From assembly GCA_041694815.1 (NCBI GenBank), contig JBGFSC010000006.1:1-64000 (forward strand): a stretch of DNA of 64,000 nucleotides, read 5' to 3'. The stretch's first letter is position 1, and every line of letters begins with the position of its first letter. Both the position numbers and the translations under genes were made by a program. The notes below the pieces were generated by a model that saw nothing but the letters and a program-made list of their open reading frames with translations, had not been told where the DNA came from and searched no databases. Of the stretch, positions 20,310 through 37,933 are shown one piece after another. Origin of the DNA: Elusimicrobiota bacterium (GTDB lineage: Bacteria > Elusimicrobiota > Elusimicrobia > UBA1565 > JACRDR01).

Positions 20310-20393
20310 TGTCGATTTTGGGCGAGCGTTGCTAAAATCCACAACGTTGTTTTCGTACCTTGCGCGCAAGCCAAGGCAACTCGGGAGGTGGAA

Positions 20394-22460
20394 ATGCTTC
20401 TGTCACAGACTCGGCGGTTTTGGCTGGCCGCGCTCGCCGCGGCCCTCCTCGGAACGTCCGCGCATGCGGTAGGGCGTTCCGACATCGAAATGCTGCTGCG
20501 GCGCCGTGACGCCGCGACCGCAAGGAATCTCACCCTTCTCGTCCGTGACCGTGGGCAGAATTTCCTTGCCAAGATCACGGCCGGCAGGCCGGATTCCGAC
20601 AAGGCCGTGCACGCCTGGGCCTTCGCGCATCCCGAGACCGCGGCCGATCTTTACTCCCTCCTGATTCAACGCGGCCGTGCCGGAGCCGAGGCGTTCGCGC
20701 GTCCGGAGTCCACTTATAAGGGAATCGAAGGCCACGCGCAGATGGTGGCCGACGACAAGAAGGCGTCGGCCGAGCAGGCCAACGGCAACGCGGGCAAGCC
20801 GTTCGACGGCTCAAGCAAGAAGGACGGATCGCTTCCCGTCAATACGGGCCCGGTCGCGAAGCCCAACGGCCAGCCGTCCGCCCAGAAGAAACCGGACAAT
20901 CTCCTCGAGCGCTTGAGGAAGTGGATGGATGATGAGCGCGACGGCGTCCCCGGCTCGAGCGGCAAGCGCGAGAGCGGCAAGGTCACCTTCAAGGATGTCA
21001 TCGGCCTCAAGGAAGCCAAGGCGCAGATCATACAGTTCGTCGACATACTCAAGAATCCCGAGAAGTACGCGCGCCTGGGCGCGGAGGTGCCGCGTGGCAT
21101 CCTGATGGTGGGGCCTCCCGGCAACGGCAAGACCCTTCTGGGCAAGGCTCTCGCCAACGAGGCGGGCTTCTCCTGCTTCATCGCGAAAGCGGGTCCTGAG
21201 TTCTCCAGTAAATGGGTCGGCGAGAGCGCGGCCGAGATCCGCCGCACCTTCGAGCAGGCCCGTGCGCAGGAGCCCTGCATCATCTTCATCGACGAATTGG
21301 ACGGCTTGGCGGCGGCCCGCACCGGCATCGACCAGTCCGTGGCCCGCGAATACAACTCCACCGTCGAGCAGCTGCTCGTCGAGATGGACGGCTTGACCGA
21401 GCACAGCAAGAACGGCAAGGTGCCGAAGGTCTTCGTCATCGGCGCCACGAACCGGCCGGACCTTCTCGACCCTGCGGTCATGCGCCCCGGGCGCCTGGAC
21501 CTGCATGTCGTGATCACCTCGCCCGACATCAAGGATCGCGAGGAGATGATCAAGTACTACGTCAAGAAGAAGAAAGTCCCGGCCAACGCCGACGTGGACT
21601 TCAAGATCCTGGCTGGCCGCACCACCGGCATGTCCGGAGCCGCGATCAAGGACTTCGTCAACAAGGCCGCCTTGGTGGCCGCGGAGGAGAACGCCCAGGA
21701 TGTCACGCTCAAGCATTTTCTCAAGGCCCTCGACCGGCTGCAAATCGGCGGCGAGCGGCGCATGGTGCTTAGCGACGCCGAGAAGATCATTACCGCGCGC
21801 CATGAGCTGGGCCACGCCCTGGTCGCCACCTATACGAAGGGCGGCGATCCCGTAGGCAAGATCACGATCATCCCGCGCGACATCGGCGCGCTCGGCGTGA
21901 CGACCTCCGAGCCGCCGGAAGACCGGAAGAATTGGAGCAAGACCCAGCTCCTCAACCAGATCGCCATGGCCATGGGAGGGCGCGTCGCTGAGAAGATTTT
22001 CTACAACGACGAGACCACCGGCGCCGCGAGCGACCTGGAGAATTCCCAGAACCTCGCCTGGCAGATGGTCGTGCGCTTCGGCATGAGCGAAAAGCTGGGG
22101 CCGGTTTCCTTCGTCAAGACCGCCCAGGGCAATTATCTCTCCGGCGGAGCCTCGATGCAGCCTGTTAGCGAAGAAATTCAAAAGCTCATCGACTCCGAGG
22201 TCAAGCGCTTCCTGCTCGAGGCCGAGCAGCGGGCCATGGCCATCCTTACCGCCAAGAAGGATGTCTTGGACAAGGTGGTGCCATACCTGATCAAACAGGA
22301 AACCATGGAGGGTTCGGACCTGCGCAAGCTGCTCAAGGAGTTAGACACGAACCCGGGAGAGTATCCCGTGCAGGACCCCCCGCCGCAACAGCCGGGCTCG
22401 GATAAGCCCTTCGCGACCACCCCGACCAATCTAGGGTGCTCGGCAGGCAGGCTGTATTAA
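20394..22460 (+). CDS. ftsH: FtsH-like AAA+ zinc protease with a cleavable signal peptide and no TM anchor
   Basis: GPPGNGKT, IIFIDELD, ATNRPDLLDPAVMRPGRLD, HELGH, GGRVAE, TTGAASDL. Leader MLLSQTRRFWLAALAAALLGTSAHA; SD ggagg. Confidence 0.9.
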   Translation: MLLSQTRRFWLAALAAALLGTSAHAVGRSDIEMLLRRRDAATARNLTLLVRDRGQNFLAKITAGRPDSDKAVHAWAFAHPETAADLYSLLIQRGRAGAEAFARPESTYKGIEGHAQMVADDKKASAEQANGNAGKPFDGSSKKDGSLPVNTGPVAKPNGQPSAQKKPDNLLERLRKWMDDERDGVPGSSGKRESGKVTFKDVIGLKEAKAQIIQFVDILKNPEKYARLGAEVPRGILMVGPPGNGKTLLGKALANEAGFSCFIAKAGPEFSSKWVGESAAEIRRTFEQARAQEPCIIFIDELDGLAAARTGIDQSVAREYNSTVEQLLVEMDGLTEHSKNGKVPKVFVIGATNRPDLLDPAVMRPGRLDLHVVITSPDIKDREEMIKYYVKKKKVPANADVDFKILAGRTTGMSGAAIKDFVNKAALVAAEENAQDVTLKHFLKALDRLQIGGERRMVLSDAEKIITARHELGHALVATYTKGGDPVGKITIIPRDIGALGVTTSEPPEDRKNWSKTQLLNQIAMAMGGRVAEKIFYNDETTGAASDLENSQNLAWQMVVRFGMSEKLGPVSFVKTAQGNYLSGGASMQPVSEEIQKLIDSEVKRFLLEAEQRAMAILTAKKDVLDKVVPYLIKQETMEGSDLRKLLKELDTNPGEYPVQDPPPQQPGSDKPFATTPTNLGCSAGRLY

Positions 22461-22482: not shown

Positions 22483-23826
22483 ATGGATCAGCCCGCCGGG
22501 GCTTCAGACGACGCGCTCGGGGCTAAAAGCTCCGAGCGCGTCGTCGCTTTTCTGCTGTTTCTCTGGCTTTTTTCCATCATCTGTTCGTATTACATCCTGC
22601 GCCCCGTCCGCAGCGCGCTGATCCTCTCGGAGTTCGGGCCCAAGGCTCTCCCCTGGGCGTACATGGGCACGGCGCTGTTTACCGGCATCGCGGTCTGGAT
22701 TTACACCCAGTTCACGTACCTGCCGCGTAAGACGCTGCTTACCCGCGTGATCCTGTTTTTTATCTCCAATTTCGCCGTGTTGTGGTGGATCGTCAGCAGG
22801 CGCATCCCTTGGTCGGCCGGCATTTTTTACGTCTGGACGGACATTTTCTCCATCATGGCCGTGACGGTTTTTTGGATGTACGTAAACGACGTCTTTCCCT
22901 CGAAGTCCGCCAAGCGGAGCTTCGGCATCATCGGTTCGGCAGGCCCGGCCGGCGCCATCGCCGGCGCCGCCTTGATCAAAATTTTCGTCCGCCGTGTGGG
23001 CGTGGAGCAGATGCTGCTGGTCGCTGGCGGATTCTTCGGCTTAGGGCTGTTGATTTTTTGGGCGCTCGAGTTCCTCACCGGTGGACGATCGGCTGAGCGC
23101 AAGAAGGCGATAGAGAAATTCGAGCAATACAATTTTTCCGAGTTTTCCAGCTTGATGCGTTCCGTGGCGCGATCAAGGGTGCTGACCCTGTTGACGGTCG
23201 CCGTGTGCTTCGAGCGTTTCGCGCCGGATTTCGTTGATTACGTGTTTTCGGCGGCCCTGCATCATGCCTATCCGGACAAGCTCGGCTACGCGGCCGTCTT
23301 CGCCACCTTCGAGTTCTGGCGCAACGTGCTCGTGTTCATCGCCACGCTGTCGCTCACCTCGACCATCCTGCGCACGCTCGGAGTGCACGTGGCCATTACC
23401 GCCGTGCCGATGACCATCCTCATCGGTGGCGCGGCCTACGCGCTGTTCCCGTTCCTGGGGGTGGCCATCGCCTTGAAGGGCTTGGAGGAGGGCCAGCGGC
23501 ATGCGTGGTTTAAGGCGGGCAAGGAAGTGATCTATACGGCCACGCATTCCGACGTCATCTACAAGGTCAAGGGCTATCTCGAGATGTTCCTCTACCGTTT
23601 TTCGCGGGGTCTGGCTGGCCTCATCATCTTGTTCTTGACCAGCGGTCTGGGTCTGGGCGCCGTCGGCGTGGCCTGGGCCGTGGTCCCGCTGGCCGCGCTG
23701 TGGGCGGTCGTGACCTGGAAGCTGGGCAAGGCGTACGAAACCAGCGAGGCCGGAGCGGCCGATAAAGAGGAGCCCGCTCTCCCCTTGGGCAAAGAGGCGT
23801 CAATATCTCAAGGTGCCAGGGATTGA
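22483..23826 (+). CDS. NTT/TLC-family (ATP/ADP translocase-like) MFS-fold transporter
   Basis: About 12 TM; YYILRPVRSAL, FYVWTDIF, FW..VNDVF...AKR.FG.IG..G..G, KEVIY......YKVKGYLEMFLYR match NTT-family signature spacing. Confidence 0.78.
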   Translation: MDQPAGASDDALGAKSSERVVAFLLFLWLFSIICSYYILRPVRSALILSEFGPKALPWAYMGTALFTGIAVWIYTQFTYLPRKTLLTRVILFFISNFAVLWWIVSRRIPWSAGIFYVWTDIFSIMAVTVFWMYVNDVFPSKSAKRSFGIIGSAGPAGAIAGAALIKIFVRRVGVEQMLLVAGGFFGLGLLIFWALEFLTGGRSAERKKAIEKFEQYNFSEFSSLMRSVARSRVLTLLTVAVCFERFAPDFVDYVFSAALHHAYPDKLGYAAVFATFEFWRNVLVFIATLSLTSTILRTLGVHVAITAVPMTILIGGAAYALFPFLGVAIALKGLEEGQRHAWFKAGKEVIYTATHSDVIYKVKGYLEMFLYRFSRGLAGLIILFLTSGLGLGAVGVAWAVVPLAALWAVVTWKLGKAYETSEAGAADKEEPALPLGKEASISQGARD

Positions 23827-31954: not shown

Positions 31955-33230
31955 TCGTTTATTCCGCCGGGCTTGCGGACTGCTGCCAGGCGGGGTCAAT
32001 TCGCCGGTGAGGGCCTTCAAGGCGGTCGGCGGCACTCCGCGCTTTATCCGCTCAGGCAAGGGAGCTCGAATTTTAGATGAGGATGGGCGTTCCTATATCG
32101 ATTATTGCCTTTCCTGGGGACCTCTTATCCTAGGCCATGCCCACCCCGCCGTCGTCGCCGCAGCGTCTCGCGCACTGAAAAGGGGATCGAGCTTCGGCGC
32201 GCCGACCGAGGCCGAATCGCGGCTGGCCGAGTTGATCCGCTCCGCCTTGCCCTCGATGCGTATGCTGAGGCTGACGAGCTCAGGCACCGAGGCCGTCATG
32301 AGCGCCCTGCGCCTGGCCCGCGCCTTCACGAGGCGTGACTGGATCGTGAAGTTCTCGGGATGCTATCACGGTCATGTCGACAGCCTGCTGGTCTCCGCTG
32401 GCTCAGGCGCTATGACATTAGGCAGTCCGGATTCCGCGGGCGTACCCGAATCTTGGGCCCGGATGACGCTTTCTTTGTCTTACAACGATGTCGCTTCCGT
32501 CGAGAACGCGTTCGCCCAATATGGCGGGCGCATCGCCGCCGTCATCATCGAGCCGCTGGCCGCGAACATGGGAGTCGTGGCGCCGCGCGAAGGATTTCTC
32601 AAGGCCTTGCGCGAGATCACCCGGCGGCACGGGGCCTTGCTTATCTTCGACGAGGTGGTGACCGGCTTCCGTCTGGAGTTCGGCGGCGCCCAGACGCTCT
32701 GGAAGATAGAGCCCGATCTGACCTGCCTGGGAAAAATTATTGGAGGGGGATTTCCAATCGGCGCTTACGGGGGGCGGCGCGAAATCATGGAGATGGTAGC
32801 GCCTTTGGGGCCGGTGTATCAGGCGGGGACCCTCTCCGGCAACCCCGTCGCCGTCGCCGCCGGCATCGCCTGTCTCGAGACTCTCCGCCGCCAGAAGCCG
32901 TACGCGCGCATGGCGCGTCTGGCCTCGCGGCTCGCCGAGGGGTTGCGCCGGCAGGCGTCGGGACTGGGCGTGCCCTTGACCGTCCAGCAATTCGCCTCTA
33001 TGCTGACCCCTTTCTTTCACGCAGGACCGATCAGCGATTACGCCAGCGCGAAGGCGGCCGACACCCGGGCTTACGCCCGATTCTTCCATGCCATGCTTCG
33101 CGAGGGAATATACCTGCCTCCGGCGCAATTCGAGGCCGCCTTCCTGTCAGCCGCGCATACCGAAAAGGACGTCGATCTCAGCTTGAGGGCAGCGGGTAGG
33201 GCGCTGGATTCGCTAACGCGAAGGACTTAG
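31941..33230 (+). CDS. hemL: Glutamate-1-semialdehyde 2,1-aminomutase
   Basis: PGGVNSPVRAF, SWGPLILGH, SGTEA, FDEVVTGFR, GKIIGGG, YQAGTLSGNP. Confidence 0.97.
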   Translation: MEKSDRLFRRACGLLPGGVNSPVRAFKAVGGTPRFIRSGKGARILDEDGRSYIDYCLSWGPLILGHAHPAVVAAASRALKRGSSFGAPTEAESRLAELIRSALPSMRMLRLTSSGTEAVMSALRLARAFTRRDWIVKFSGCYHGHVDSLLVSAGSGAMTLGSPDSAGVPESWARMTLSLSYNDVASVENAFAQYGGRIAAVIIEPLAANMGVVAPREGFLKALREITRRHGALLIFDEVVTGFRLEFGGAQTLWKIEPDLTCLGKIIGGGFPIGAYGGRREIMEMVAPLGPVYQAGTLSGNPVAVAAGIACLETLRRQKPYARMARLASRLAEGLRRQASGLGVPLTVQQFASMLTPFFHAGPISDYASAKAADTRAYARFFHAMLREGIYLPPAQFEAAFLSAAHTEKDVDLSLRAAGRALDSLTRRT

Positions 33231-33824
33231 CGAGACGAGCACTGGAAGGCCTTTGTAGAAAAAAACGAGGACGCCTTCCGGCAAGCCCATGGCGGCTCTC
33301 TGATCGGCGGACGCTTCCTTGACGCCAGCTACCTTGCGGATGGCCATGAGTACGCGCGACTGAGTCGCGATCCCGCTGTCGATGCCCACGAGTATCGCGG
33401 GGGGCGCGGGGATGACGCCGATGCTTACCCGCGGCCTATCTCCGTCATCGTAAACGGGGATCGGTATGCGATTCAAGGCGTCCGCGAATTCCTTCGCGGT
33501 CCGGAGCAGGTCTTCTTCTTTTGGTGCGCCTCCGCCGAACATGGTCGATAGAATTTGCTCCATCAGCTTGTTCTGATCCGAGCCGCGGCCCTGCGGAGCC
33601 GCTTGGATTTTCGGGATTTCCAGAAGCGGCAGTTTCCCATCCGCATCAGCCAGATTTGCCGGTCCTTCCTTTGTATAGCCTTCCGGCAAGGTGAGTAAGG
33701 GCAGTTTTCCCTGCTCGTCGAATTGGGCATCGCCCTGTTGCCTGGCATCCTCCGGGCTTTCGGCGAAGCAGGGAACGCCCGCTAAGAATACGGCGCTTAC
33801 GGCGAGAGTGAATATGGAGTTCAT
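33213..33824 (-). CDS. Secreted hypothetical protein with the SxExA..FD / KLPLL N-terminal module
   Basis: Signal MNSIFTLAVSAVFLAGVPCFA; N-terminal module paralogous to 35667-36278. Confidence 0.75.
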   Translation of the reverse strand: MNSIFTLAVSAVFLAGVPCFAESPEDARQQGDAQFDEQGKLPLLTLPEGYTKEGPANLADADGKLPLLEIPKIQAAPQGRGSDQNKLMEQILSTMFGGGAPKEEDLLRTAKEFADALNRIPIPVYDDGDRPRVSIGVIPAPPAILVGIDSGIATQSRVLMAIRKVAGVKEASADQRAAMGLPEGVLVFFYKGLPVLVSLSPSR

Positions 33825-33858
33825 GCCTCCAGTATGGGCCTTATTCCTCCGCGGCGCA

Positions 33859-33921
33859 TGAGTCCCAAGACCTAAATCGTCTGGGTCCTTGGGCCCCGAG
33901 AATTTAGGACCAAAAGGCCCT
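33859..33921. promoter_or_regulatory. Three tandem palindromic boxes (23-bp period) in a divergent promoter
   Basis: tgagtc-ccaa-gaccta (33859), tgggtc-cttg-ggcccc (33882), taggac-caaaa-ggccct (33905). Confidence 0.75.
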
Positions 33922-33954
33922 CGCGATTTGCTGCCGCTCCGCTAAACTAGTCAT

Positions 33955-35664
33955 ATGAAAAAACTACCCGTCGTACTCGCCCTCTTCACCGTATTATCCG
34001 TCGCGCCCAGCCCACGCTCCTATGCCCAGTTCGGCAATCCGTTCGCCGCGCAGGAGGAGCAACATAAGAAGGTCGTAGGAAGGCTCGGCGAAGCGCTCAA
34101 TGCCAAGCAGTCCGAGATGCCTAAGGATGTTTGGAAGAGAGTCCATGAGGAATATAACCGCCTCCTTAATATGCAGCCCCACAATCCCGAGGCCCAGAAA
34201 TCGATAGATTACCTGCAATGGTTCATCGATCTTCCTTGGGGAAAAGAGACCCAGGATCGATTCGACCTGGCGGAGGCTCAAAAGATATTAGACCGCGATC
34301 ATTACGGGCTCGACCAGGTCAAGGAGCGTGTCATCGAGTACCTGGCGGTCCGCAAGAGAACCGCCTCGCAGAAGGGAGGCATTCTCTGCTTCGTGGGGCC
34401 CAAGGGAACCGGGAAAACCTCCATCGCCAAGGCCATCGCCGAGTCCATGGGCCGCAGCTTCGTCCGCTTGTCTCTGGGCGGAGTCAATAACGAGGCGGAA
34501 TTGCGCGGGTTTCAGAGGACCTATATGGGATCACGGCCGGGCAGCATCATCACCCAGATGAAGAACGCCAAGACGATAAACCCCGTGATGCTCATGGACG
34601 AGGTGGACAAGCTGGCCGATGGCAGTCACTACGGCGATCCTCGGGCGGCGCTCTTGGAGATCCTCGACCCGGAGCAAAATAATACCTTCCGGGACCATTA
34701 TATGGATGTCCCCTATGATTTGTCGAAGGTGCTCTTCATCCTCACGGCCAACGATATGAGGAGGATCCCACCGCCCCTGCTCGACCGCGTGGAGATCATC
34801 GAGTTCTCGGCCTACACGGTGCGCGAGAAGGTGGGCATAGCCCAGCACCATATCGTGGGCCGTAAGCAGCGCGAATGCGGCATCAAGCCGGGCTCCTGCG
34901 AGCTCACCGTCGCGGCCATCGAGCAGATCATCGACGGCTACACGATGGAGGCCGGGGTGCGCAACCTGCAGGAGAACATCGGCGGCGTCTACCGCAAGGC
35001 CGCCGCCTGGGAGGAGACCAAGGGCCTGCCCATCCCCAAGAAGATCGATCATGGGCAGGTGAAGGATTACCTGGGAGCCCCGCGCTACGGCCACCGCATC
35101 ATGGAGGAAAACGGCGTCGGGGTCGGCACGGGCTTGGCGGTCAGCGACAACGGCGGGAGCACGCTCAACGTCGAGGTGCTCAAGGTGCCCGGAGACGGCA
35201 AGGTCCGCACCCGTGAGTTGATGGAGAAGATGTTCCAGGATTCCGCCGACAATGCCGTGGCCTACGTCAAGTCCAAGGCCGTGGAACTGGGCATCGATCC
35301 GGAGGATTTCAAGAAATACGATCTGGAGATCGCGATAGCTCCCGCGATTCCGGTCGACGGGCCTTCGGCGGGTACCGCCATGACCACGGCGATCGCGAGC
35401 AGCTTGAGCGGCCGCAGGATCCGTAAGGGAGTAGCCATGACCGGCGAGGTCACGTTGACCGGCAAGGTGCTCCCGATCGGTGGGCTCAAGCAGAAGGTGA
35501 TGGCGGCCGAGCGCATGGGCTACGACACGGTGCTTTTCCCCGCCGCCAACGAGCATGAGCTCGAGGAGATTTCCCCCGAAGTGCGCAAGAAGATGACATT
35601 GGTGCCCGTCAAGACGATGGACGAGGTCTTGAATCTGGCCTTGGAGCCCCGGCCCCAGGCCTGA
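33955..35664 (+). CDS. lon: Lon protease lacking the LON_N substrate domain, with signal peptide
   Basis: LD.DHYGL..VKERV.EYLAV, GPKGTGKTS, MDEVDK, ALLEILDPEQN..F.DHY, DGPSAG (Ser), PIGGLKQK (Lys). Leader MKKLPVVLALFTVLSVAPSPRSYA. Confidence 0.92.
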   Translation: MKKLPVVLALFTVLSVAPSPRSYAQFGNPFAAQEEQHKKVVGRLGEALNAKQSEMPKDVWKRVHEEYNRLLNMQPHNPEAQKSIDYLQWFIDLPWGKETQDRFDLAEAQKILDRDHYGLDQVKERVIEYLAVRKRTASQKGGILCFVGPKGTGKTSIAKAIAESMGRSFVRLSLGGVNNEAELRGFQRTYMGSRPGSIITQMKNAKTINPVMLMDEVDKLADGSHYGDPRAALLEILDPEQNNTFRDHYMDVPYDLSKVLFILTANDMRRIPPPLLDRVEIIEFSAYTVREKVGIAQHHIVGRKQRECGIKPGSCELTVAAIEQIIDGYTMEAGVRNLQENIGGVYRKAAAWEETKGLPIPKKIDHGQVKDYLGAPRYGHRIMEENGVGVGTGLAVSDNGGSTLNVEVLKVPGDGKVRTRELMEKMFQDSADNAVAYVKSKAVELGIDPEDFKKYDLEIAIAPAIPVDGPSAGTAMTTAIASSLSGRRIRKGVAMTGEVTLTGKVLPIGGLKQKVMAAERMGYDTVLFPAANEHELEEISPEVRKKMTLVPVKTMDEVLNLALEPRPQA

Positions 35665-35666
35665 TC

Positions 35667-36278
35667 ATGAGCAAGGCCACGGCAAGCTACTGGCTCGCCT
35701 TAGCCATTATCGCGCTCTCTGCGGTTGGCCGCGCGGCGGAGACCGCCAAAAGCGACGAGGAGGCCAAGCAGCAGGCTGACCTCCAATTCGATGAGTCGGG
35801 CAAACTGCCCCTACTTACCTTACCGAAAGGGTATAAAGCGGAAAGACCGGCGATGGGCAGTCTCGGAACAGCTCCTCTTAATATCACCGATGCGCAGGAC
35901 AAGCTTCCGCTCTTGCCGATCCCTTCACCGGCTCCAGCCCGACGCGCCGGGCCGAACGTGCTTGAAGGGCTTATCGGCAGCTTGATCGGCTCCGCCATCG
36001 GCAGCCATGTATTTGTCAATGTCTTTACCCCGATGTTCTCGGCGCAGCCGCTGCTGATCCCCATCGTCGCGGCTATTTTCGGCATGTCCATGGGGACTCG
36101 CATGGCCATGCCGATGGCGATGTTGATAAGGCGTCGCTGGCCCATGATCGTTATGCCCCTGTTGCTCGGAGCCGTTTGCTTCCTGATCCCTCCCATGGGT
36201 GGAGCGATATGGGGAATGATGATTCTGGGACCGCTATTCGCCCGCCTTTTGGCTAAACTCGGGTCTTTAAAGAAGTAA
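35667..36278 (+). CDS. Secreted/membrane protein with the SxExA..FD / KLPLL module and a hydrophobic Met/Gly-rich C-terminus
   Basis: Signal peptide; 2 bp after lon; several C-terminal hydrophobic helices. Confidence 0.75.
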   Translation: MSKATASYWLALAIIALSAVGRAAETAKSDEEAKQQADLQFDESGKLPLLTLPKGYKAERPAMGSLGTAPLNITDAQDKLPLLPIPSPAPARRAGPNVLEGLIGSLIGSAIGSHVFVNVFTPMFSAQPLLIPIVAAIFGMSMGTRMAMPMAMLIRRRWPMIVMPLLLGAVCFLIPPMGGAIWGMMILGPLFARLLAKLGSLKK

Positions 36279-36292
36279 AAAACGGCGGGGCT

Positions 36293-37933
36293 CTACATCC
36301 GTTCCGGCGCCGAAACGCCCAATAGCCCCAATCCCTCGGCGATCACGGCGCGCACCCCTCCGCAGAGAGCCAGGCGCGCGCGTGACAACTCCGCTTGAAC
36401 CGCGTCGACGACGCGGCATTTCTCGTAGAAGGGGTGGAACAAGCCGGCGAGCTCCAGCAGGTAGTTGGCCAAGAAATGCGGGGAGAGTTCCGCCTCGCAG
36501 CTGCGCAGGGCCGCCGGAAACCAGGCCGTCTTGGCCAATAGGGCGCGCTCCTCCGGGGAGCGGAGCATCGCCGCGTCGAATTCCGCCCTCTTCTCTCCCA
36601 GGACCTTTTCCGCCTCCCGAAAAATCGAGCAGATCCTGGCGTGCACGTACTGGACATAATAGACCGGATTCTCCTGGGACTGCTTCTTGGCCAATTCCAG
36701 ATCGAAATTCATGTGGGAGTTGGCCGTGCGCAGGGCGAAGAAGAATCGGCAGGCGTCCCGGCCGACTTCCTCGACCACCTCGCGCAAAGTGACGAACTCG
36801 CCGGCGCGCTTGGACATCTTGACCGCCGTCGTTCCGCGGTAGAGGTGCACCAGCTGGTGGATGATGGCGTGGAAGTATTCCGGGGGACGGCACAGCGCCG
36901 CGATCGCCGCGCGCATGCGCGGCACGTAGCCGTGATGGTCGGCCCCCCAGATGTCGACGAGCTCCGTCCAACCGCGGTCGAACTTGTTCTTGTGGTAGGC
37001 GATGTCCGGAAGGAAGTAAGTGGGATTGCCGTCCGATTTGACGAGGACGCGGTCCTTGTCGTCGGCCCCCGCCTCCAGCTGGCTGGTGCCGAGCCACACG
37101 GCCCCCTCTTTTTCGTATACCATCCCGCGCTTCCTTAAGTAGTCGAGGGTCGACTCGACGGCCTTGGAGGCGTAGAGCTCGCTCTCGCGGAACCAGCGGT
37201 CGAAGGCGACCCCGAAGGCGTCCATATCCGCCTTGTGGGAGGCGAGCATCAGCTCCATGGCGTAGCGCCCCCATGCGTGCTCATCCCAGCCAGCGGCCTC
37301 GGGAGGGGCTGCGGCCGCGACCTCCTTTAGGTATTCGCCTTGGTAGCCGTCCGTCGGGACTTCCGCGGGCTTTCCTTGAAGCTGCAGGTAGCGCGCTTGG
37401 GCGGAGCGGCCGAGAAGCTCCGCGCGGGCACCCCCGTCATTGATGTAACATTCGCAGCCGACCTTATGGCCGATGCGGCGGAGTATCTTGGCCAAGCTGT
37501 CGCCCAGCGTGGCTCCCCGCCCGGAGGCCAGGTGCAGCGGGCCGGTGGGATTGGCCGAGACGAACTCGATCAAGAGGGAACGGGCCGCGACATCCGGGTC
37601 GCGCCCGTACTCGCCGGGCTTGGCGAGCAGCGCGCGTAGATTTTCCGCCAGCGCCTCCGGCCGCAGCTTGAAATTGACGAAGCCAGGCGCGACGGCCTGC
37701 GGCGTCTCGACGCCGCCCAAATCCCGCAGTGCCTCGGCCAATTGGGCCGCTACCTCCAGCGGCTTGCGGCCCATGGCCTTGGCCAGTGAGAGGGGCCAAG
37801 GCAGGGAAAAATCCGCGGGGACGTGGGCCGGCGCCGGAGCGAATGTGAAATGCCGGGGGGCCTCGACGCCTTGGCCCTGCGCCCAAGCCTTAAGCCGCGA
37901 GGCCGCTTCCCGTTGAACCCTTTCGATGATCAC
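36293..37933 (-). CDS. argS: Arginine--tRNA ligase
   Basis: EFVSANPTGPLH, GADHHGY, KMSKRAG, NPVYYVQYVHARICS, LGVSAPERM. Confidence 0.97.
   Translation of the reverse strand: MIIERVQREAASRLKAWAQGQGVEAPRHFTFAPAPAHVPADFSLPWPLSLAKAMGRKPLEVAAQLAEALRDLGGVETPQAVAPGFVNFKLRPEALAENLRALLAKPGEYGRDPDVAARSLLIEFVSANPTGPLHLASGRGATLGDSLAKILRRIGHKVGCECYINDGGARAELLGRSAQARYLQLQGKPAEVPTDGYQGEYLKEVAAAAPPEAAGWDEHAWGRYAMELMLASHKADMDAFGVAFDRWFRESELYASKAVESTLDYLRKRGMVYEKEGAVWLGTSQLEAGADDKDRVLVKSDGNPTYFLPDIAYHKNKFDRGWTELVDIWGADHHGYVPRMRAAIAALCRPPEYFHAIIHQLVHLYRGTTAVKMSKRAGEFVTLREVVEEVGRDACRFFFALRTANSHMNFDLELAKKQSQENPVYYVQYVHARICSIFREAEKVLGEKRAEFDAAMLRSPEERALLAKTAWFPAALRSCEAELSPHFLANYLLELAGLFHPFYEKCRVVDAVQAELSRARLALCGGVRAVIAEGLGLLGVSAPERM

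Follow-up and report, generated by a model that had tools for sequence, protein, structure and literature searches.

A LonA protease paralog with a predicted signal peptide and no N-terminal domain in an uncultured Elusimicrobiota bacterium

The lon locus and the domain architecture of its product

We analyzed a window of 64,000 nucleotides (positions 1 to 64,000, forward strand, of contig JBGFSC010000006.1; assembly GCA_041694815.1) from the genome of an uncultured Elusimicrobiota bacterium (2.77 Mb, 97.8% complete; labelled G000 below), which contains a lon gene coding for a 569-residue Lon protease with a predicted Sec-type signal peptide. On its sequence the product is a real LonA-type paralog, with the catalytic residues of a predicted ATP-dependent protease intact: behind the signal peptide, a helical segment is followed by an AAA+ α/β domain, a lid domain, and an S16 protease domain with its Ser-Lys dyad (Table 1). 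The Pfam models AAA and Lon_C are matched with E-values of 3.5e-25 and 3.6e-61, respectively, and the protein passes the curated equivalog score of TIGR00763 ('endopeptidase La'; 633.4 bits vs. a cut-off of 608.05). This match pairs model positions 249–795 (of 795) with residues 35–563 only, such that the helical segment (residues 35–143), homologous to the LonA model from position 249 on, is a remnant of the LonA N-terminal region. The Pfam scan of the protein yielded no match to the LON N-domain (PF02190), and the initial sequence-only reading of this DNA as coding for a LonA without its N-domain is thus borne out. Its further claim that the Walker A and B motifs and the Ser-Lys dyad are intact agrees with an alignment that sets the 569-residue Lon beside 10 Lons of the signal-peptide type and the canonical Lon of the genome, in which the invariant columns include K154, T155, D215, E216, Ser471, and Lys514, as well as Y190, N266, R278, and R336, labelled by us as pore-loop, sensor-1, arginine-finger, and sensor-2 residues, respectively.

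The three-gene lon locus (window 33100-36400) has a guanine-plus-cytosine (GC) content of 0.55–0.63 vs. 0.65–0.70 in its flanks, which suggests an acquired or fast-evolving island; it is bordered by hemL-like and argS-like genes (named by eye). A promoter/terminator scan returned two promoter-like sites vs. 1.0 expected, both within the lon gene.

The predicted signal peptide and the translation start

Read by eye, the N-terminus is MKK-LPVVLALFTVLSVA-PSPRSYA↓Q (the arrow marking the predicted cleavage site), i.e., a positive n-region and a 14-residue h-region with small residues at −3/−1; by the same inspection it has neither a lipobox Cys nor a twin arginine. Under the usual rules (a core of 7–15 residues, small residues at −3/−1), applied by eye and with no trained predictor, it fits the pattern for Sec and signal peptidase I and is a predicted signal peptide, in keeping with the sequence-only reading. 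Searches of the genome recovered three matches for signal peptidase I and four for Omp85; therefore, the organism is predicted to be a diderm with a periplasm.

The ATG at 33955 lies three codons past an in-frame stop, and no in-frame ATG, GTG, or TTG occurs between codon 1 and codon 55. The GC content by codon position in codons 1–54 (0.65/0.40/0.72) is of the coding type, resembling the remainder of lon (0.60/0.39/0.83) and unlike the upstream spacer (0.60/0.62/0.50). Given that LonA homology begins at residue 35 in a frame with this coding pattern and no intervening start, the signal-peptide region is most probably translated. The sequence-only reading had itself raised a start at Met55 (MPKDVW), which these same three observations disfavor. 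The corresponding alternative, viz., a soluble cytoplasmic Lon initiated at Met55, with no translation of the 54 codons ahead of it, is in our estimate very improbable: what speaks for it is that no Shine-Dalgarno motif precedes ATG 33955, but Met55 is equally without one, a start there would cut a conserved helix, and the relatives keep hydrophobic N-termini. In the genome as a whole, a Shine-Dalgarno motif is present in just 530 of 2273 roughly called genes.

A clade of LonA paralogs with signal-peptide-like starts in Elusimicrobiota

In the database, the closest proteins are 'endopeptidase La' entries from Elusimicrobiota, with 51–60% identity. Among the 46 best matches (P0002-P0047), 38 open with a signal-peptide-like segment that terminates in [FWY]-[AS]-Q (e.g., ...RALLAAFLVTLPGSREAFA↓Q and ...ARLTLAAFAATLPGPAAWA↓Q), and the remaining eight comprise six N-terminally truncated records and two proteins without a signal (P0042, P0046). 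The search for homologs with signal peptides that the sequence-only reading had called for has thereby uncovered a whole clade of LonA paralogs. Most of its members are 870–990 residues long, with an Ala/Pro/Ser/Gly-rich stretch of ~150 residues, PF02190 or another N-region, and then the AAA+ and protease domains. In a tree of 40 Lons, built like the larger tree below on the AAA+ and protease region, the 569-residue Lon falls inside a clade of all 23 signal-peptide-type rows (stem length 0.57; Shimodaira-Hasegawa-like approximate likelihood ratio test [SH-aLRT] support 100), apart from the canonical Elusimicrobiota Lons, among which the genome's own canonical Lon is placed. A 58-row tree recovers the same clade with 26 rows (SH-aLRT 99). 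The canonical 800-residue Lon is kept in the genome, encoded after tig-clpP. One member of the clade, P0042, is a cysteine-free Lon of 793 residues with a canonical-looking N-terminus and no signal, yet groups with the signal-peptide-type proteins; either a chimeric assembly or a reversal could account for this.

Among 401 Elusimicrobiota genomes, matches of at least 550 bits occur in 17 other genomes, all from a single family (f3) within the order to which G000 belongs; N-termini were read in 11 of them, and 16 of the 17 have a second Lon match. This threshold undercounts the clade, as long signal-peptide Lons are also encoded by G404 (525 bits) and G398 (362 bits), which belong to the same family as G000. 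Since most clade members keep the N-domain behind the linker, and five same-family genomes encode canonical or long Lon forms only, the 569-residue Lon is to all appearances a deletion derivative that lost both linker and N-domain. The signal is accordingly not a replacement, and on this point the sequence-only reading, which had the signal peptide taking the place of the N-domain, has to be given up, most clade members holding both the signal and PF02190.

The clade is also set apart by its cysteine content. In 41 of 45 signal-peptide-clade Lons, the last 515 residues are without Cys, the other four having one, and no Cys occurs from residue 41 on in 41 of the 45. The 73 other Lons (P0048-P0120) have 1–5 Cys in the last 515 residues (median 3). 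Eleven further clade representatives include six without Cys, four with one, and one with three, and two ClpB-like neighbors of >1000 residues have none. Across G000, Cys accounts for 1.04% of all residues, and 41 of 419 proteins of at least 500 residues are cysteine-free, most of these starting signal-peptide-like by eye. The near Cys-free make-up of the long signal-peptide Lons thus fits that of predicted exported proteins.

Further ATP-dependent enzymes with signal-peptide-like starts and a potential ATP carrier

The genome encodes several other ATP-dependent enzymes with comparable N-termini, with signal-less FtsH, ClpC, and adenylate kinase counterparts encoded elsewhere in it. An FtsH-like AAA+/M41 protease in the window starts with …FWLAALAAALLGTSAHA↓VG in place of the usual membrane-spanning segment and is without a membrane-helix pair. 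Of four Clp/Hsp100-like ATPases (Table 1), three retain intact Walker motifs in both rings, and all four genes sit in lower-GC operons with other signal-peptide proteins. A second adenylate kinase gene abuts that for the 1573-residue Clp-like protein, the canonical adk being located in a secY-adk-map cluster (contig C48). Among 60 other genomes of the order, 27 carry this second type of adenylate kinase, which is marked by Ala/Pro/Ser-rich N-extensions and an 'FDG' motif; at least three of the 27 loci show a clear signal-peptide-like start, and most have long Ala/Pro/Ser-rich upstream frames.

In family f3, a conserved N-module comprised of signal peptide, low-complexity linker, and FDG motif is private to Lon and a ClpB-like paralog (one to two strong matches per genome, five genomes), and the two genes are often neighbors. 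The first 35 residues of this ClpB-like ATPase are nearly those of the neighboring signal-peptide Lon and are followed by a similar low-complexity linker, and both proteins are cysteine-free. The only Clp of G000 with Clp_N-type repeats (by eye; contig C35) has no signal. At the contig C2 island, a WD40 protein and two 205-residue membrane proteins are encoded directly upstream of the signal-peptide Clp-like gene; a tail ...AE[DE]RFKL(Q), seen on three proteins of this island, could be a tag read by the adjoining Clp-like ATPase.

A homolog of the TLC (ATP/ADP transporter) family is encoded 23 nt downstream of the FtsH-like gene, in the same operon, and a second copy occurs on contig C25. The FtsH-like/TLC pair is conserved, along with the signal peptide, in G000 and in the same-family genomes G402 and G404, and was found in none of the other 27 loci with 1.5-kb flanks. 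Outside G000, 17 of the 60 genomes sampled from the order encode an orthologous carrier (at least 200 bits). We rejected the carrier as marking the system, given its detection in 7 of 14 signal-peptide-Lon genomes and its weak, Pfam-level matches.

Genes flanking lon and its long relatives

The other two genes of the lon locus code for nbA and nbB, of which nbB begins 3 nt past the lon stop and nbA is divergent from lon. They are paralogous over ~80–105 residues (43–51% identity), with the common motif GKLPLL[TE][LI]P, and match no Pfam or NCBIfam family; the topology of nbB is ambiguous by crude hydropathy, read by eye. As conserved partners of Lon they were rejected: tblastn returned no match in 12 long signal-peptide-Lon loci, no match was found in 60 other genomes of the order, and they are private orphans.

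Elsewhere in the clade, a gene for an S1/P1 nuclease with a signal-peptide-like start adjoins the signal-peptide Lon gene in two genomes (G290, G389), and in G367 a PMT_2-type glycosyltransferase gene converges on it; the Ser/Thr/Pro/Ala-rich linker of the signal-peptide Lons could be a glycosylation target. Polytopic membrane proteins with a signal-peptide-plus-linker N-module are also encoded near signal-peptide Lons, one of them an MFS_1 transporter whose Pfam match begins at the first helix; hydropathy and topology counts on these MFS-like fusions are crude and ambiguous.

Table 1. Coordinates of the features discussed. Plain positions refer to the 64,000-nucleotide window; other locations are given by contig or locus handle.
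Feature	Location	Strand	Basis
LonA paralog gene with predicted signal peptide, without N-domain, 569 aa	33955..35664	+	open reading frame, Pfam, NCBIfam
Predicted Sec/signal peptidase I-type signal peptide, codons 1-25 (MKK, 14-residue hydrophobic core, SYA↓Q)	33955..34029	+	by eye; GC periodicity
Helical remnant of LonA N-terminal region just ahead of AAA+, residues 35-143	34057..34383	+	model match, alignment
AAA+ alpha/beta domain, residues 144-284	34384..34806	+	Pfam AAA, alignment
Walker A GPKGTGKT, residues 148-155	34396-34419	+	alignment
Walker B D215/E216	34597-34602	+	alignment
Lon AAA+ lid domain, residues 307-350	34873..35004	+	Pfam Lon_lid
S16 Lon protease domain, residues 363-564	35041..35646	+	Pfam Lon_C, alignment
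Catalytic Ser471	35365-35367	+	alignment
Catalytic Lys514	35494-35496	+	alignment
nbA, 203-aa orphan, signal-peptide-like start, acidic region with motif GKLPLL	33213..33824	-	
nbB, 203-aa orphan, signal-peptide-like start, acidic/KLPLL region, hydrophobic multi-pass C-terminal half	35667..36278	+	
FtsH-like AAA+/M41 protease, signal-peptide-like N-terminus	20388..22460	+	by eye
TLC (ATP/ADP transporter) family homolog	22483..23826	+	Pfam 40 bits, cut-off 21
Clp/Hsp100-like ATPase, 764 aa, signal-peptide-like start	G000 C15:3073-5367 (L056)		
Clp/Hsp100-like ATPase, 806 aa, signal-peptide-like start	G000 C2:22715-25135 (L057:6716-9136)		
Clp/Hsp100-like ATPase, 916 aa, signal-peptide-like start	G000 C25:55338-58088 (L058:7339-10089)		
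Clp/Hsp100-like ATPase, 1573 aa, signal-peptide-like start	G000 C9:74955-79676 (L059:6956-11677)		
Second adenylate kinase, 30-residue signal-peptide-like extension	G000 C9:74299-74958 (L059:6300-6959)		Pfam ADK 7e-37 from residue 34
WD40 protein and two 205-aa membrane proteins	L057:4048-6622 (G000 C2)		
ClpB-like double-ring ATPase of f3	L037:12346-15471	-	
ClpB-like double-ring ATPase of f3	L045:360-3575	-	
ClpB-like double-ring ATPase of f3	L038:11455-13359	+	
S1/P1 nuclease, signal-peptide-like start (G290, G389, with next row)	L041:7804-8949	-	
S1/P1 nuclease, signal-peptide-like start	L042:7271-8377	-	
PMT_2-type glycosyltransferase (G367)	L035:6511-8670	+	
Polytopic membrane protein with N-module	L035:12201-14222	+	
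Polytopic membrane protein with N-module	L040:6360-8750	-	
Polytopic membrane protein with N-module	L040:15505-18999	+	

Comparison with known Lon families and other AAA+ proteins

The 569-residue Lon shares with LonA (MEROPS S16, e.g., E. coli Lon) the AAA+, lid, and S16 Ser-Lys dyad as well as the pre-AAA+ helical segment, and the spacing of its Walker A Lys and Walker B Asp (K154 to D215) is of the LonA type; it differs from LonA in having a predicted Sec-type signal peptide and no PF02190. Its closest counterparts are the uncharacterized long signal-peptide LonA paralogs of the same clade (43–60% identity), which likewise have a start ending in aromatic-[AS]-Q and occur alongside a canonical Lon. 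Unlike these almost Cys-free proteins, with their linker and N-domain or other N-region, the short form has neither linker nor N-domain, and contains three Cys.

Archaeal LonB and bacterial FtsH are membrane-attached AAA+ proteases, FtsH having two membrane helices and facing the cytoplasm. The 569-residue Lon has no LonB-like anchor insert between Walker A and B and scores 108.9 bits with TIGR00764 (vs. 516.6). In contrast to LonC, with its degenerate ATPase, its Walker A and B motifs are intact (TIGR02903, 102.5 bits vs. 678.8). Per the portions of PMC9569914 that deal with Lon classes, LonA and LonC are soluble and cytoplasmic and LonB is membrane-bound, and LonBA combines a probable N-terminal anchor with a Walker A Lys-Walker B Asp distance of 82 residues vs. 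60 in LonA. LonBA (B. subtilis 'LonB', MEROPS S16.005), as portrayed in those portions, resembles the 569-residue Lon in being short, with no LonA N-region and a hydrophobic N-terminus, but the enzyme held by its anchor is regarded as cytoplasmic, and it is distinguished by the LonA spacing of the 569-residue Lon, which scores 97.2 bits with TIGR02902 vs. a cut-off of 723.3.

In eukaryotes, AAA+ proteins do act behind a targeting signal, viz., Yme1 with adenylate kinase 2 in the mitochondrial intermembrane space, which is topologically equivalent to the periplasm, the Torsins in the endoplasmic reticulum, and Plasmodium HSP101 of PTEX. These cases combine a targeting signal with a non-cytosolic, ATP-supplied compartment and known ATP carriers, and offer an analogy and not a homology. 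Beyond the phylum, an exhaustive search brought to light a second clade (tree support 97) of Lon-like proteins with hydrophobic N-termini and no classical N-domain (P0121-P0124, P0126, P0140, P0174, P0219, and P0262), some with two to three Lon-type AAA+ modules and one with ankyrin repeats; two members are named Dependentiae/Babeliales. This separate Dependentiae-like group is not Cys-depleted (2–10 Cys). In the sections of the report on a cultured Dependentiae parasite that cover its peptidases, M41 peptidases are among the predicted secreted proteinases and lon is counted as cytoplasmic (PMC6561590). In the literature searched, we came across no account of an exported bacterial Lon, Clp, or other AAA+ protein, nor of the signal-peptide LonA clade.

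Functional interpretation

We propose as the most likely explanation, with a probability of roughly 0.45, that the 569-residue Lon functions as an exported enzyme, drawing on ATP outside the cytoplasm. By this account, the protein would have lost the low-complexity linker and the N-domain, the signal peptide being kept or re-formed ahead of the last helices of the N-region. Sec would carry it across the inner membrane, with cleavage after SYA25, and the mature Lon would assemble outside the cytoplasm and degrade exported or membrane proteins with ATP; the flanking orphan predicted-exported proteins nbA and nbB are candidate partners or substrates. The cell itself might supply the ATP through its TLC-family carrier homologs, with the exported adenylate kinase as a buffer; alternatively, the ATP might come from a host or prey cell. 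The other ATP-dependent enzymes with signal peptides, the adenylate kinase among them, and the TLC homolog lend circumstantial support to export and to the suggestion of the sequence-only reading that the protease may act in an ATP-containing compartment or in another cell. A more sweeping form of the proposal, which we hold only tentatively and consider somewhat doubtful, is that the order runs ATP-dependent unfolding and degradation outside the cytoplasmic membrane by means of an exported AAA+ set and an exported adenylate kinase. ATP would then be delivered by outward-running TLC-family carriers or by a host or prey, and the Lon without an N-domain would be a pared-down component of the set, possibly guided by nbA and nbB.

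Apart from the missing Shine-Dalgarno motif, a number of observations weigh against export with the use of ATP. An ATP pool outside the bacterial cytoplasm is not established. The TLC matches of the order are weak (20–58 bits with the Pfam model), scores of >500 bits being confined to small-genome lineages, and across the 14 signal-peptide-Lon genomes sampled an orthologous carrier was found in seven and not found in seven. The near-absence of Cys does not extend to the 569-residue Lon, which has C145, C308, and C315. P0047 and L043 contain extra hydrophobic segments with Lys/Arg-rich stretches after them, a pattern compatible with a catalytic domain in the cytoplasm. The first helix of an MFS_1 transporter normally starts in the cytoplasm, such that the N-module of the MFS_1 fusion would lie inside, a topology conflict for which a proline-rich hydrophobic stretch of the linker offers a possible way out.

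Several of these observations feed an alternative that we consider unlikely, namely a membrane-tethered, cytoplasmic Lon, whose N-terminus would anchor it at the inner membrane with access to cytoplasmic ATP and membrane-protein substrates, an arrangement likened to that of FtsH, archaeal LonB, and probably B. subtilis LonBA. In its favor, ATP is established only in the cytoplasm and all ATPase residues are conserved, and it is consistent with the P0047/L043 segments, the cytoplasmic linker implied by the MFS_1 N-module, and the three Cys of the short Lon. The hydrophobic N-terminal helix of LonBA, described as a probable anchor in the relevant part of PMC9569914, furnishes a precedent. Against tethering stands the hydrophobic segment itself, which is short (14 residues), with Lys-Lys ahead of it and a small-x-small site behind it. 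The positive-inside rule then predicts an N-in/C-out orientation, which would place the catalytic part outside, and the 569 residues hold no second hydrophobic segment. Moreover, the long relatives are Cys-free like exported proteins, and the operon partners include soluble signal-peptide proteins.

A further set of points against the proposed exported, ATP-using Lon concerns its isolation. It lies on a long branch (0.76 in the 40-row and 0.57 in the 58-row tree), and no other short signal-peptide Lon was found in the 120 and 150 best matches or in five same-family genomes, the entries of under 650 residues among the 120 best matches being fragments or signal-less. A hidden Markov model (HMM) of the f3 N-module (34 N-termini) gave no match to the 569-residue Lon at E<10 and nothing significant among the six-frame open reading frames of G000 (best E 0.043); the likeness of its signal peptide to those of the clade is therefore a resemblance only, through the shared aromatic-[AS]-Q ending. 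A further alternative is a protein that would be exported but not ATP-driven, i.e., an ATP-independent peptidase or holdase, or else a copy undergoing decay in an island of recent acquisition. Such a status would suit the lone position of the protein on its long branch and the low GC content of its three-gene island, with no periplasmic ATP known and with two normally conserved Walker A positions altered (GPKGTGKT vs. GPPGVGKT). It would also suit the loss of the N-domain, which in E. coli Lon is needed for processive proteolysis. We nevertheless judge it improbable, as the frame is open over 569 codons with a third-position GC content of 0.83, every catalytic residue checked is intact, and the score exceeds the endopeptidase La equivalog cut-off.

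Biological implications

The textbook view is of a periplasm without ATP, in which envelope proteases such as DegP are ATP-independent. Here, a set of ATP-dependent enzymes (Lon, FtsH-like, Clp/Hsp100-like, and adenylate kinase) bears conserved predicted export signals, with ordinary signal-less copies kept alongside. If these enzymes are truly exported and active, then these bacteria either have ATP outside the cytoplasm or use the enzymes inside another cell, and either outcome would change the view of envelope proteostasis or of microbial interactions. Should the exported AAA+ set prove true, it would constitute a bacterial counterpart of the mitochondrial intermembrane space. If the proteins are instead membrane-tethered and cytoplasmic, the anchoring of LonA, Clp, and adenylate kinase in this manner would still be undescribed.

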